Source: a bacterium (GTDB lineage Bacteria; UBA8248; JACPRG01; G963555815). From it: a stretch of DNA of 64,000 bases. Position 1 is the stretch's first letter; the number at the start of each line of letters is the position of its first letter. The stretch lies in contig OZ244653.1 of the NCBI GenBank assembly GCA_965218795.1, positions 768,001 through 832,000 on the forward strand, written 5' to 3'. The notes below the pieces were generated by a model that had not been told where the DNA came from, did not search any database, and was given only the letters and a program-made list of their open reading frames with translations. Both the position numbers and the translations under genes were made by a program. This document shows positions 15,865-19,513 of this stretch, piece after piece.

Positions 15865-16209
15865 ATGGCAAGTTCTTGGAGGGCCTCCTTGTCGCTCAGG
15901 ATACTCTCGGCTTTCCTCATCGCACTCACGCTGGTTGCCTGCGGGCCGTCCTGGCGGGCCCGCTTCGTGAGAGAATCTGTTGATCAAGCGACCCGGGATT
16001 CCGTAACAAAGAGGCTGGGCGCGCCCCACTTCACCCGCGAACTGGACTCCGGCGGGTCCGTCTGGGTCTATCAGTACAAAGGGTCACGGCCGTTTTTGAC
16101 GACGTTTCGCAGTCACGCCCAGGGCGGCGGCTCCTACTGCACGGAGTTCATCCTGACCTTCGACGAGAAGAAGATCCTCCGTGAGTGGAAAGCCCACGAT
16201 TGTAATTAG
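15865..16209 (+). CDS. small lipoprotein (SmpA/BamE-like)
   Basis: Signal peptide with LVAC lipobox; LGAP...VWVYQY...FILTFDEKKILREW. Confidence 0.6.
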   Translation: MASSWRASLSLRILSAFLIALTLVACGPSWRARFVRESVDQATRDSVTKRLGAPHFTRELDSGGSVWVYQYKGSRPFLTTFRSHAQGGGSYCTEFILTFDEKKILREWKAHDCN

Positions 16210-16283
16210 ATTCGAAGGGAAACCGGGGGCCAAGCCCTCTACAAACCTTATCCCCAACGCCGCGCGCTGAGACGTCTCGCTCC

Positions 16284-16730
16284 GTGTGTCCTTCTGATGG
16301 CCTTGTCCCTTGCGGCTTGCTCCTTTGTTCAGAAGATGGGGGGGAATCCGTATCAGGCCCTGCTCTGTTAGCCCGAGACCGGATCCCCGCCGTACCCCCG
16401 GTCATCTTTCATCACGGGATGGTCGTAGGCCTTCATGGACTCTCGGGCGCCTCCGAGCGGAGGTATTCGCTGGAGTCGTTTTGTCACGCCCTGGCGGGGG
16501 ACGGTTACCTGGCTTCCCTCCCGGTCCGGAGGCTCCAAACCCCCGGCCCGTCATGGCGGTGGATGACCGGGGCGGTACAGCCGGAGCAACACCGACTGCC
16601 GTCCGGGTCCGACGCGCGCCCACCGACTGTTTTACGCGGTCGGCCCTACTGGTCGGCCGTGCGGGCGTTCCTGGACAAGTATGTGAAGTCATCCGAGGAT
16701 TTCTCTTTCCGGTTCGGCTCGGATTCATGA
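16284..16730 (+). pseudogene. possible degraded alpha/beta (dienelactone-type) hydrolase fragment
   Basis: PPVIFHHG...FCHALAGDGYLASLPVRR and a C-terminal YWSAVRAFLDKY, with the middle missing. Confidence 0.35.
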
Positions 16731-16794
16731 TCGAGTTCCCGGCCTTCGGTCGTCTCCCTCCAATCCTTTCCGCATCATTTGTTTCGGTTTTTCT

Positions 16795-16824
16795 AATCCG
16801 GCAAATCTGTGTAATCTGTGGATT
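16795..16824. repeat. short palindromic intergenic repeat (AATCCGGCAAATCTGTGTAATCTGTGGATT)
   Basis: Internal ATCTGTG tandem duplication with AATCC/GGATT arms; resembles repeats seen around accessory genes. Confidence 0.4.
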
Positions 16825-16969
16825 CAATCTCAACATGGAGAATGGAATGGACGCCTCCCACTCCCTGATGTCGGACGGCGAGAGGGCTAAAGTGGACCCA
16901 CGGGGGCCGACGGCATCACAGTGCCCAAGGGGGAAGAACAAACTCTTCCCAAGCCAACCGGAGGGTCCA

Positions 16970-17999
16970 ATGATGAAGACTGGCAGAACGGTCGTGGGCG
17001 TGGATACGGCGAAAAGGGTGTTTCAACTGTACTGGGTCGACATGGAGACGGGCGAGATCATGGGTCTGAGGCTGACACGGGCGAAGTTCCTGGAGCACTT
17101 CGCCAATCGCGCGCCGTGCCTGATTGGCATGGAGGCGTGCGGCGGCTCGCAGCACTGGTCGCGCCGGCTGCAGGAGCTGGGCCACGCGGTCAGGCTTCTG
17201 CCGGCAAAGATGGTCAGACCGTTCGTGGGCGGCAACAAGAGCGATGTACATGACGCACGCGCGCTCTGGACGGCGGTGCAGCAGCCCGGCATCAAGACGG
17301 TTGCGCTCAAGAGCGAGGAGCAACAGGCGGTCCTGGTGCTGCATCGCATGCGCCAGCAGCTGGTGAAGTTCCACACCGCCCAGATCAACGGCCTGCGTGG
17401 TCTGTTGGCCGAATACGGCGAAGTCATGCCGCAAGGCCGGGCCGGTATGAGGGGGGGGTATGGCCGTGGCCCTTGAGCGGGTCTCGGAACGATTGCCGGC
17501 GATGGTCGTGGAGACCTTGCGTGAGCAGTGGGCGCGTGTGGCCCGGCTCGACGAGGAGATTGGTGATATCGAGCGGCGGCTCAAGCTGTGGCATCGGGAC
17601 AATGCGGCCAGCCAGCGGATCGCGGAGATCCCCGGTGTCGGGGTGCTGAGCGCGACCGCCGCGGTGGCCGCGATGGTCGATCCGGGCGCGTTCAAGTCCG
17701 GCCGGGAGTTTGCCGCCTGGCTGGGTCTGGTGCCCCGACACAGCGGCACCGGCGGGCGGGTTCGCATGCTCGGCATCTCCAAGCGCGGGGACACCTACCT
17801 GCGGACCCTGCTGATCCACGGCGCCCGCTCGGTGCTCACCCACACCAAGGCGCCGCCGGAGTGGCGGGTGCGACTGGCCGAGCGCCGGCCGGCGAACGTC
17901 GTCGCTGTTGCGCTGGCGAACAAGACGGCGCGCACGATCTGGGCCTTGCTGGCCCATGCCCGGGCGTACCAACCAAATTTTGTCAGTCAGGCCGCGTAA
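16970..17999 (+). CDS. IS110/IS1111 DEDD recombinase, split by a frameshift in G8 (17451-17458)
   Basis: VGVDTAK, IGMEACGG, KSDVHDA; second frame has IPGVG, FAAWLGLVP, GISKRGDTYLRTLLIHGARS, ALANKTAR. Confidence 0.92.
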
Positions 18000-18059
18000 G
18001 CGCGGTTGGCGACAGGAACCACCAACCAAGGAGGTGGCACGCTGAAAGGTTGCGCAAGG

Positions 18060-18225
18060 TACGACAAGGTGTGATGGCCAACAGGTCAGACCGCGATCCG
18101 CCAAGCCTGCATGTCGTCAGGGGCGAAAAGCCCTCAAGGAGAATGAGGCGCGGGTCGGCAGATTCCATCGGGGCCAGCAGGCACAAGCCCTGCACAAACA
18201 GGCCGCATATAGAACTGCAACCTGT
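18060..18225 (+). ncRNA. predicted bridge/seekRNA of the IS1111 element
   Basis: Two stem/internal-loop/stem domains whose loops match the target flanks (GTCGTC 18113-18118; CAAGGAGA 18135-18142) and donor ends (ATTCCAT 18162-18168; CATATA 18206-18211); boundaries approximate. Confidence 0.7.
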
Positions 18226-18280
18226 TGTCCGGAAACACCAAATCGTCCCTCGCAAACCGGGAGGCGTCCATATAAACGAT

Positions 18281-19513
18281 ATGAATTCCGTGAAGTATCT
18301 GCTTATCGGTGGCGGGTTGGCTTCCAACCGGGCCGCCAAGACGCTTCGCCAAAAGGACTCGGAGGGTTCCATCCTTTTGGTGGGGGAAGAACCGCACGTC
18401 CCGTATAACCGGCCTCCTCTGTCGAAAGAATTCCTGCGCGGGGAGAATCCGAGGGGGAAATTGTTTTTCGATCAGGAAGGATACTACGGCGAAAAGATGA
18501 TTGGTCTCAGCCTGAACGCCCGGGTGGCGGAGCTGGACCCGGCGGGAAAGTCCGCGAAGCTGGAGGGGGGCGAGACCGTTGCGTTTGAAAAGGCATTCAT
18601 CGCCACGGGCGGACGGCCCGTCAGGCTGAGTGTTGCCGGCGCGGACCTGGACGGCGTTCACTACCTGCGCGATCTGGACGACACGGAAGCCATCGCGGCC
18701 GAGGCGGAGGAGGGCAAGCGCGCGGTCATCGTGGGGGCCGGCTTCATCGGCCTGGAAATCGCGGCGTCCTTGAGGCAGATGGGTGTCGAGGTGAACGTGG
18801 TCGAGGCGGAATCGCGAATCTGGTCCCGATTCACGGACGAGACGCTTTCCGGCTTTTTCCAGAATTACTGCGCGGAGAAGGGGATCACCTTCCACACGGG
18901 GGATACGGTTTTCGGGATCCTCGGCGAGGGACGGCCTTCTGCCGTGACAACGGCATCGGGGAAGGAGATCGCGTGCGACTTCGTCGTCATCGCCATCGGC
19001 ATCGTGCCCAACGTGGAGCTCGCCGAAGGCGCGGGGCTGGAGGTGGATAACGGCATCGTCGTCAACGAGTTTCTGCAAACCTCGAATCCGGATGTATACG
19101 CCGGCGGTGACTGCGCGAATTATCCGGACCCGGTGTTCGGCAAGCGGCGACGGGTGGAGCACTGGGGCCATGCGGGGTATTGCGGCACGCTGGCGGCCCA
19201 GAATATGTCGGGCGAGAAGAACAGGTACGACCATTTAACGACCGTCTGGTCCGACATCTTTGATCTCAAACTTCTGTTCGGCGGTGACGAGCACGAATTC
19301 GACCGGGTGCTGTTACGCGGGAAGCTGGAGGAGAAATCATTTGTGGCGTTTTATCTGAAAGAGAATCTTGTCCGGGCCTATTTCTCCGTGAACTCCGACA
19401 TGAAGCTGCTGCGCTTTTATCAGCGATTGATCAGGGAGAACATCGACCTCAGCGGCAAGGAAGTACAGCTCCGGGACCCGGAATTCGATGTGAAGGAATT
19501 TTTTTCGGAATAG
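18281..19513 (+). CDS. FAD/NAD(P)H-dependent oxidoreductase (ferredoxin reductase/AIF-like)
   Basis: IGGGLAS, PYNRPPLSKEFL, ATGG, VGAGFIGLE, YAGGD, RRVEHW, WSDIFD. Confidence 0.9.
   Translation: MNSVKYLLIGGGLASNRAAKTLRQKDSEGSILLVGEEPHVPYNRPPLSKEFLRGENPRGKLFFDQEGYYGEKMIGLSLNARVAELDPAGKSAKLEGGETVAFEKAFIATGGRPVRLSVAGADLDGVHYLRDLDDTEAIAAEAEEGKRAVIVGAGFIGLEIAASLRQMGVEVNVVEAESRIWSRFTDETLSGFFQNYCAEKGITFHTGDTVFGILGEGRPSAVTTASGKEIACDFVVIAIGIVPNVELAEGAGLEVDNGIVVNEFLQTSNPDVYAGGDCANYPDPVFGKRRRVEHWGHAGYCGTLAAQNMSGEKNRYDHLTTVWSDIFDLKLLFGGDEHEFDRVLLRGKLEEKSFVAFYLKENLVRAYFSVNSDMKLLRFYQRLIRENIDLSGKEVQLRDPEFDVKEFFSE

Follow-up and report, generated by a model that had tools for sequence, protein, structure and literature searches.

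Within the 64,000-nucleotide stretch of bacterial DNA analysed here (the window; contig OZ244653.1, positions 768,001 to 832,000, from a genome that is one 5.17-Mb contig), an insertion sequence of the IS1111 type separates the Shine-Dalgarno (SD) side of an oxidoreductase gene from its start codon. How does a mobile element come to stop between these two signals? An earlier reading made from the letters of this DNA (the sequence-only reading) had answered that an RNA in the element's right end is programmed for ribosome-binding sites (RBSs), and had named two tests: whether other insertion sites have an RBS-like flank and a downstream start codon, and whether the RNA loops covary with their targets among homologues. 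The proposal passed both. We conclude that the element is very probably one whose RNA is programmed for translation start regions and guides recombination into them. The features that this reading needs first are these, in positions of the window:

18110..18118, + strand: target guide T, CATGTCGTC, 5' arm of the target loop, complementary to the top strand over the core GA, the spacer CGAC and ATG (from guide-flank comparison)
18135..18142, + strand: target guide B, CAAGGAGA, 3' arm, identical to the top strand over the SD side and the core (from guide-flank comparison)
16832..16839, + strand: left half of the host target, AACATGGA, rich in purines and forming the SD side of the region where translation of the oxidoreductase starts (from the flank and the orthologous region in L089)
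18275..18283, + strand: right half of the host target, AACGATATG, start codon included (from the flank)
16840..18274, + strand: insertion sequence of the IS1111 type, 1435 bp (recognised by its DEDD transposase, its subterminal inverted repeats and the non-coding RNA in its 3' part; left limit from donor-guide covariation)

The 5' arm of the target loop, CAUGUCGUC, complements core, spacer and ATG as they stand on the top strand. The reverse complement of guide T, GACGACATG, is the right flank, start codon included, of a second copy of the element in the same genome (9/9), and at the window copy guide T fits AACGATATG at 7 of 9 positions, or at 8 of 9 if the GA of the left junction is counted as target. 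The 6-mer GTCGTC, formerly taken as the right-flank guide, does lie at the position of the guide, while the true guide is the 9-mer, which includes the complement of the start codon. Of the 8 positions of guide B, 6–7 fit CATGGA plus the core at the window copy, and 6 fit TAGGGA with GA at the second copy. The two guides overlap on GA and jointly spell the 15-mer AAGGA-GA-CGAC-ATG, which reads as a consensus SD, a 5-nt spacer and ATG. When the whole genome was scanned with this 15-mer, no site was found at 0–1 mismatch, 10 were found at two mismatches and 150 at three, one of the latter being the right junction of the second copy itself. The two occupied sites have 2 and 2–3 mismatches to the 15-mer, respectively (the second copy was counted by eye).

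The second copy lies on the minus strand at G000:C1:2589578-2590804, is 98–99% identical, and carries a 200-bp internal deletion and the same extra G in its transposase gene. It is preceded by TAGGGAGA on its left side and followed by GACGACATG, so that the junction reads TAGGGA joined to GACGACATG. The ATG beside it opens a signal-peptide-like sequence that is frameshifted into a 314-aa open reading frame (ORF) (L003, G000:C1:2588078-2591500, ~1380-1500 on the minus strand), which, read by eye, is a putative periplasmic substrate-binding protein. The frameshift in this neighbouring gene is a hint of assembly indel errors or of gene decay.

To see the guides in other settings, we turned to relatives of the element. 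Scanning one genome per species gave at least 553 stretches that encode a relative of the C-terminal half of the transposase, and the best 80 (63–88% identity) were analysed. Both inverted repeats were present within one mismatch at 53 of the 80 loci; together with the two copies of this genome, these made 55 elements at 50 non-redundant sites, and 49 sites once L019 was removed, since another copy of the element forms its right flank. An ATG stands 6–9 nt to the right of the insertion point at 42 of the 49 sites, compared to 5.2% of all other positions in the same loci, and when guide and flank are aligned without gaps, an ATG faces precisely the first three bases of the guide at 36 sites. 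An SD-like 4-mer occurs at the insertion point at 37 sites. On average, the 5' arm agreed with its own target in 7.02 of 9 positions and with permuted targets in 4.79; for the six spacer and core positions only, the values were 4.90 and 3.14, and for the 3' arm 6.82 of 8 and 5.18. In none of the three comparisons did any of 2000 permutations reach the observed mean. The second copy and the relatives' sites thus show the expected RBS-like flank and start codon, and the loops covary with their targets, also in the members that have targets other than RBSs.

The guides themselves indicate what is kept and what is changed. Among 38 distinct guide pairs, 32 have AT at T positions 2–3, the 3' arm contains GGAG, GAGG or AGGA in 29, and 25 combine the two features; as judged from these arms, the clade keeps 'AT' and an SD-like purine run in its guides, and the spacer-reading positions vary by element. 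Six guide pairs do not have AT. In five of them, compared by eye (L024, L034, L035, L042 and L043), the target shifts with the guide (AAA/TT, AG/CT, AC/GT), and the sixth, L041, fits only partially. The 5' arms that start with AAAGGCC, GAGCGGCC and AACAGGCC belong to the sites GGCCTT, GGCCGCT and GGCCTGT, respectively, none of which is at a gene start. A minority of the clade is, by its arms and sites, reprogrammed to targets that resemble repetitive extragenic palindromic (REP) sequences or to other targets. According to the record labels, clade members occur in Alpha-, Beta- and Gammaproteobacteria, Acidobacteriota and Nitrospira.

These data allow us to weigh the possibility that the transposase protein itself recognises the SD-ATG context, the matches of the RNA loops being coincidental or purely structural. 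SD and ATG are common to most targets and hence give no covariation signal by themselves; moreover, T position 2 always holds A, and a stem could be closed by AT and AATG. What speaks against recognition by the protein is that the spacer positions alone match their own targets (4.9/6 versus 3.14 when permuted), that members with non-RBS targets alter both arms in step with those targets, and that the homologous arms of ISEc11 are experimentally shown guides (PMC11187229). We consider protein recognition very unlikely, and programming by the RNA remains our preferred reading.

The genes next to the insertion points bear on a further account, according to which insertion is not aimed at start regions and the pattern comes from selection after insertion, or from wrongly set boundaries that place element sequence in the 'flanks'. 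The left boundary given in the sequence-only reading was indeed 2 bp off. The flanks, however, differ from site to site and pass into host genes that are unrelated and have Pfam domains: in 17 of the 31 downstream ORFs with 40 codons or more, a Pfam match (E ≤ 1e-5) begins near the N-terminus, for example ABC ATPase, SbmA/BacA, ZnuA, ExbD, PhaC, AMP-binding enzyme and TldD/PmbA, and on the Burkholderia plasmid pBTU (L100) a RefSeq HNH gene starts 8 nt past the element. The orientation is the same throughout, and the two sites of this genome are among only ~160 of ~10 million positions within three mismatches of the 15-mer. Unaimed insertion is thus extremely improbable in our view, and we keep to insertion aimed at start regions. 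On pBTU, the element lies within an operon, between a DUF1173 gene and the HNH gene, and the upstream coding sequence is annotated 11 nt into its left end.

Since the boundaries matter for every count above, the ends of the element were examined together with the donor guides, which read them:

18162..18168, + strand: left donor guide ATTCCAT, reverse complement of the left end ATGGAAT (its C variant covaries with the left end)
18207..18214, + strand: right donor guide ATATAGAA, which spells ATATA of the right end, then the GA core and the initial base of the left end (covariation in 52/52 elements)
16840..16846, + strand: left terminal extension GAATGGA, 7 bp, the GA at its start being the crossover ('core') dinucleotide (right donor guide match in 52/52 elements)
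16847..16859, + strand: left subterminal inverted repeat ATGGACGCCTCCC (its initial ATG is invariant in 55/55 elements)
18259..18274, + strand: right subterminal inverted repeat GGGAGGCGTCCAT with the 3-bp extension ATA (from comparison of element ends)

The variant TCCCAT of the left donor guide occurs solely with the left end ATGGGAT (4/4 cases). In all 52 readable cases among the 55 elements, the right donor arm reads as the right end (ATACA or ATATA) plus the two bases, AA or GA, found just before ATGG at the left junction, and by eye the rule also holds for the remaining three. Because the right donor arm spells them in 52/52 elements, these two bases travel with the element. The left boundary, placed at 16842 before, therefore moves to 16840, and with it goes the RBS that the earlier reading had rejoined (CATGGAGA before AACGAT): the final G of its GGAG is the first base of the element and, as the left GA travels with the element, the site before insertion was CATGGA joined to AACGATATG.

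This agrees with the convention for IS1111 elements, in which the left extension has 7 bp, the right one 3 bp, and insertion adds no bases (PMC11187229). In the genome of one relative (G041; L025-L031), seven copies sit in a REP-like palindrome, CCCTTTGGGG..GAGGGATG, of which twelve similar repeats are empty. The empty sites there read TTGGGG(G)GAGAGGGATG and the occupied ones TTTGGGG-AA-(element)-GAGAGGGATG, which fits insertion without added bases, as seen in that relative only, and supports the same insertion point as the donor-guide covariation does. When empty sites were rebuilt with no shared bases, with the left core kept or with the right core kept, guide T matched at means of 7.20, 7.02 and 7.22 of 9, and guide B at 6.82, 6.82 and 6.45 of 8, respectively. 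Given that these means are similar, guide matches alone do not fix the crossover point; the donor-guide covariation and the empty REP sites do.

The ends also identify the element. ATGGACGCCTCCC and GGGAGGCGTCCAT form a perfect 13-bp inverted pair, within the 11–13 bp of the IS1111 group, and 13-bp repeats are kept across the 55 elements. The extensions are asymmetric, as in that group: the left one is GAATGGA (7 bp), the right one ATA (3 bp). The non-coding stretch from the transposase stop codon at 17999 to the right end at 18274 is 275 nt long, in line with the long 3' non-coding region of IS1111 elements, and only ~130 nt of the element lie upstream of the transposase gene. By these sequence features, 16840-18274 is classed as a member of the IS1111 group of the IS110 family.

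We then asked whether the region of the guides forms a conserved RNA structure, with two features to consider:

18071..18222, + strand: predicted long seekRNA or bridge-like RNA with two internal-loop domains (fold, covariation in relatives, and block-by-block homology with the ISEc11 non-coding region)
18158..18218, + strand: donor-binding domain with the outer stem GCAG/CTGC and the inner stems GGCC/GGCC and GCAGG/CCTGC (helices 5-7 of the covariation model)

Folding of 18000-18280, a check that the sequence-only reading had suggested for 18000-18275, gave -115.4 kcal/mol, compared to -93.9 ± 5.2 in shuffled sequences (z = -4.12, with 0/200 shuffles as stable). RNAalifold, run on 38 distinct relatives, predicted a basal stem (18094-18101/18150-18157), the stem GCCT/AGGC, an internal loop and a capping hairpin GGGC/GCCC, and in the second domain the stems GGCC/GGCC and GCAGG/CCTGC. 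The structure that we scored consists of this model plus the outer stem GCAG/CTGC of the second domain, minus one invariant alternative helix. In the 38 relatives, 97.7% of 1216 cells are paired and 11 of the 32 pairs show compensatory changes; 0/500 shuffles match this, and slid controls reach at most 42%. The variability of the alignment is confined exactly to the four loop arms. The earlier description of the RNA held at each point: GCCT(G)CAT (18105-18112) faces ATGAGGC (18143-18149) in a stem, the loop arms are GTCGTC (18113-18118) and CAAGGAGA (18135-18142), and the second domain holds ATTCCAT (18162-18168) and CATATA (18206-18211). RNAalifold also pairs the invariant GTGATGG (18071-18077) with CCATC(G) (18165-18170), which would sequester the left donor guide. 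This pairing could be an alternative conformation; both sides are invariant, and covariation therefore neither supports nor excludes it.

The layout of a target loop and a donor loop, as proposed by the earlier reading, is upheld both by this covariation and by position-for-position agreement with ISEc11 (PMC11187229). The choice of targets by guide RNAs was described in 2024 for IS1111 and IS110 elements (PMC11187229, PMC11208160), and ISEc11, with the target GTGAAAATACTG, is the main model of the seekRNA study (Siddiquee et al. 2024, PMC11187229), according to which the seekRNA carries its top-strand match on the 5' side of its bottom-strand match and both cover a common part of the target. 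We find the same order and overlap here. The non-coding region of an ISEc11 copy on an Escherichia coli plasmid aligns block by block with that of our element, and its arms at the same positions, AACAGTATTT and GTGAAAAT, are the reverse complement of the right part and a copy of the left part of GTGAAAATACTG, respectively; its second loop matches the ISEc11 ends. The element of the window also shares with ISEc11 and other IS1111 seekRNA elements a DEDD transposase with PF02371, 13-bp repeats, 7- and 3-bp extensions, and an RNA 3' of the transposase gene (PMC11187229). It differs from them in its target, which is SD-spacer-ATG and not GTGAAAATACTG, attC sites, REP sequences or Tn21 ends, and in a guide overlap of 2–3 nt, compared to 4 in ISEc11 and IS1111 elements (PMC11187229). 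Unlike ISEc11, it has a frameshifted transposase gene and is known from sequence alone.

The closest named relative that we found is the ISBcen4 family (the RefSeq name, on the Burkholderia ambifaria plasmid pBMC401), with the same subterminal repeats and RNA blocks. ISBcen4 is among the IS1111-type elements in the source data of PMC11187229. Its identity to the element of the window is well below the level of one and the same insertion sequence and its guides are different; in the ISBcen4-family copy, only the left guide matched the flank in our extraction. Because the transposase is only 66–68% identical to the ISBcen4-family protein (68% in the N-terminal and 66% in the C-terminal part), the element is an unnamed relative. 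The IS621 bridge RNA (Durrant et al. 2024, PMC11208160) likewise has target and donor internal loops, each with two arms that read opposite strands and share a core. In IS621, however, the RNA lies in the left end and the subterminal repeats are 2–3 bp long (PMC11208160), whereas here the RNA lies in the right end and the repeats have 13 bp; a guide RNA in a long left end with very short repeats, as in the IS621 type, is not what this element has.

The target class is new for an element of the IS1111 kind and is explained by the guides, whereas start-site targeting itself is known from IS900 and IS901 of Mycobacterium avium. These two are not known to have long subterminal repeats, and they are inserted the other way round, the host signals serving the antisense hed ORF. 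Both belong to the IS110 family and have been reported between the SD sequence and the start codon (PMC2942039, citing Doran et al. 1997, 'IS900 targets translation initiation signals...', and Inglis et al. 2003), and they stand far from the IS1111-type names in the element list of the PMC11187229 source data. Our literature search found no paper that links IS900 to a guide RNA, and no report of a guide RNA aimed at RBSs or of an IS1111-type element that does so; subscription journals and logos given only as figures were beyond its reach.

Several observations weigh against the reading of start-region programming. The fit at the window copy is imperfect (T 7/9 and B 6/8 if the AA of the right junction is the target core), and the SD derived from the host is then just GGA(AA). 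The first base of guide T is A in 20 of the 38 guide pairs and is unpaired with the G of ATG, so that the guide reads 'AT' and not the full codon, and the invariant T position 2 could be structural. As to the sampling, 27 of the 80 loci were dropped for want of two recognisable ends (short contigs, truncated copies or too much divergence), the sites are not independent since copies in the same genome share guides, and the guide arms were set by sequence anchors and a best-offset search, the permuted controls being handled identically. No Rfam family matched the RNA: a cmscan of 16000-19000 with E up to 10 returned only three chance-level matches, outside the RNA. Among the public runs listed, none is recorded as an RNA run. 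At the locus, the downstream ORF is intact, the transposase gene is frameshifted in both genomic copies, and no empty-site joint across the element is listed in contigs of four public runs.

The state of the transposase gene raises the question of whether the element still moves. It is composed of three features:

16970..17476, + strand: N-terminal part of the transposase, DEDD/RuvC-like domain PF01548 (E = 4.5e-11, 43.2 bits against a cut-off of 29)
17451..17458, + strand: G8 homopolymer that splits the transposase frame, one base more than in intact relatives (the extra G is in both genomic copies)
17460..17999, + strand: C-terminal part of the transposase, PF02371 (E = 8.2e-21; motif GLVPRHSGTG in the translation)

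The motif follows the GL-P----S(t)G definition for the C-terminal domain in PMC11187229. Relatives have an open transposase frame of ~1150 nt; in place of an intact protein of 330–350 aa, there are two pieces here that jointly span ~343 codons. Given that both copies share the frameshift, the shift is older than the copying or else a systematic error. In contigs of the four public runs, the G run has the same length in X1 and X7, is one G longer in X4 and one shorter in X6. Such variation could reflect a slippage-prone on/off tract or homopolymer error, and the frameshift may accordingly be real and variable or a homopolymer artefact. As assembled, both copies are probably non-autonomous, because of the shared frameshift and the 200-bp deletion in the second copy.

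The element could be a dead relic in this genome, whose RNA is perhaps still made while transposition has ceased and whose 'programme' is only historical. To this would fit the frameshift and the deletion, the presence of three decayed remnants in the genome (two keep the right end with an ATG 7 nt further on), and the fact that the same insertion, with single-nucleotide differences in the flanks, occurs in four runs of four studies with no empty site listed. On the other hand, the G run with one base fewer in X6 and one more in X4 means that in-frame variants may exist, unless these are homopolymer assembly errors, and the host gene beside the second copy is likewise frameshifted. We regard the relic status as evenly balanced between true and false.

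The history of the window locus was followed in the same contigs. Both junctions (16700-16866 and 18245-18400) are covered in contigs of the four runs, flank contigs run into the element, and the contigs of three of the four runs that cover the junctions show 2–5 flank differences. Since the same insertion occurs in four runs of four studies and no empty-site joint is listed, there is no sign of recent movement at this locus, and the insertion is common to related strains. The exact empty site was not found, the closest genomes being only 72% identical in the gene; in a genome of the same family (L089), the orthologous upstream region reads ctggaggtcccATG at the matching place.

What would such an insertion do to the host gene? 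The gene in question is:

18281..19513, + strand: pyridine-nucleotide-disulphide oxidoreductase, intact ORF (Pyr_redox_2, E = 4.4e-66, plus Reductase_C)

Its ATG is at 18281, as the sequence-only reading had it. By analogy with the mechanism of IS1111 and IS621, the excised circle, the RNA and the transposase would form a synapse with a matching start region and recombine at the core, guide B pairing with the bottom strand. The element would come to lie after the SD and before the start codon, in every case pointing the same way as the host gene, so that the left end of the element would now follow the host SD and host transcription would read into the transposase gene. The right inverted repeat precedes the host ATG, and a GGGAGG in it is 16 nt away. 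Because this is too far for an SD by the usual rule, and because the host SD is displaced by ~1.4 kb from the ATG, translation of the downstream gene should fall.

Once inserted, the element also places an ATG of its own (16847-16849) 6 nt from the host SD. Here this ATG shares the reading frame of the transposase and precedes the transposase start by 41 codons. We considered whether translation begun at the captured SD of the host gives an N-terminally extended transposase. The stretch up to the transposase start is open in this copy but is not conserved: it is open and in phase in only ~9-10 of ~40 distinct elements, and others have it in different frames. The idea was rejected as a general feature. 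More broadly, one may picture a 'gene-start seeker' clade in which the SD- and AT-reading guide positions are kept while spacer positions drift, the ATG at 16847, 6 nt from the captured SD, redirects host translation signals into the element, and guide T, being antisense to the start regions of target mRNAs, acts in trans as a small anti-RBS RNA. This extended picture is speculative and, taken as a whole, rather unlikely. If true, such a seeker would find many landing sites in any bacterial genome, and each insertion would lie directly behind a host promoter and SD.

The guide-RNA arms offer a sequence-level explanation for the old finding of IS110-family elements between SD sequence and start codon, and they suggest that a widespread IS1111-type clade reaches start regions by base pairing. 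Such elements would be natural devices for translation knock-down or promoter trapping. With its dozens of natural guide/target pairs, the clade could provide training data for the rules of IS1111-type targeting, among them how far mismatches are tolerated, which core is chosen and how long the guide is. In the annotation of genomes, such an element would mark the true start codon 6–9 nt from its right end.

Some further copies show other arrangements. Two of the decayed remnants of this genome, G000:C1:1322232-1322268 and 2653794-2654087, have an ATG 7 nt past their right ends, GCCTGTCATG and AAGCTGTATG, respectively; the second lies, by eye, inside the putative 3' part of another transposase gene. 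At G000:C1:5086463-5086639, an RNA region stands alone, 88% identical, with other target arms (TATGGATAGG and TGTGGAGA), without a transposase gene and with a truncated right inverted repeat. Among the relatives, L019 is directly followed by part of another copy's RNA region, pointing to tandem or nested copies, ~1.6 kb of foreign DNA splits the non-coding region of L009, and the target of L044 is a tandem repeat of ATGTCATGAA.

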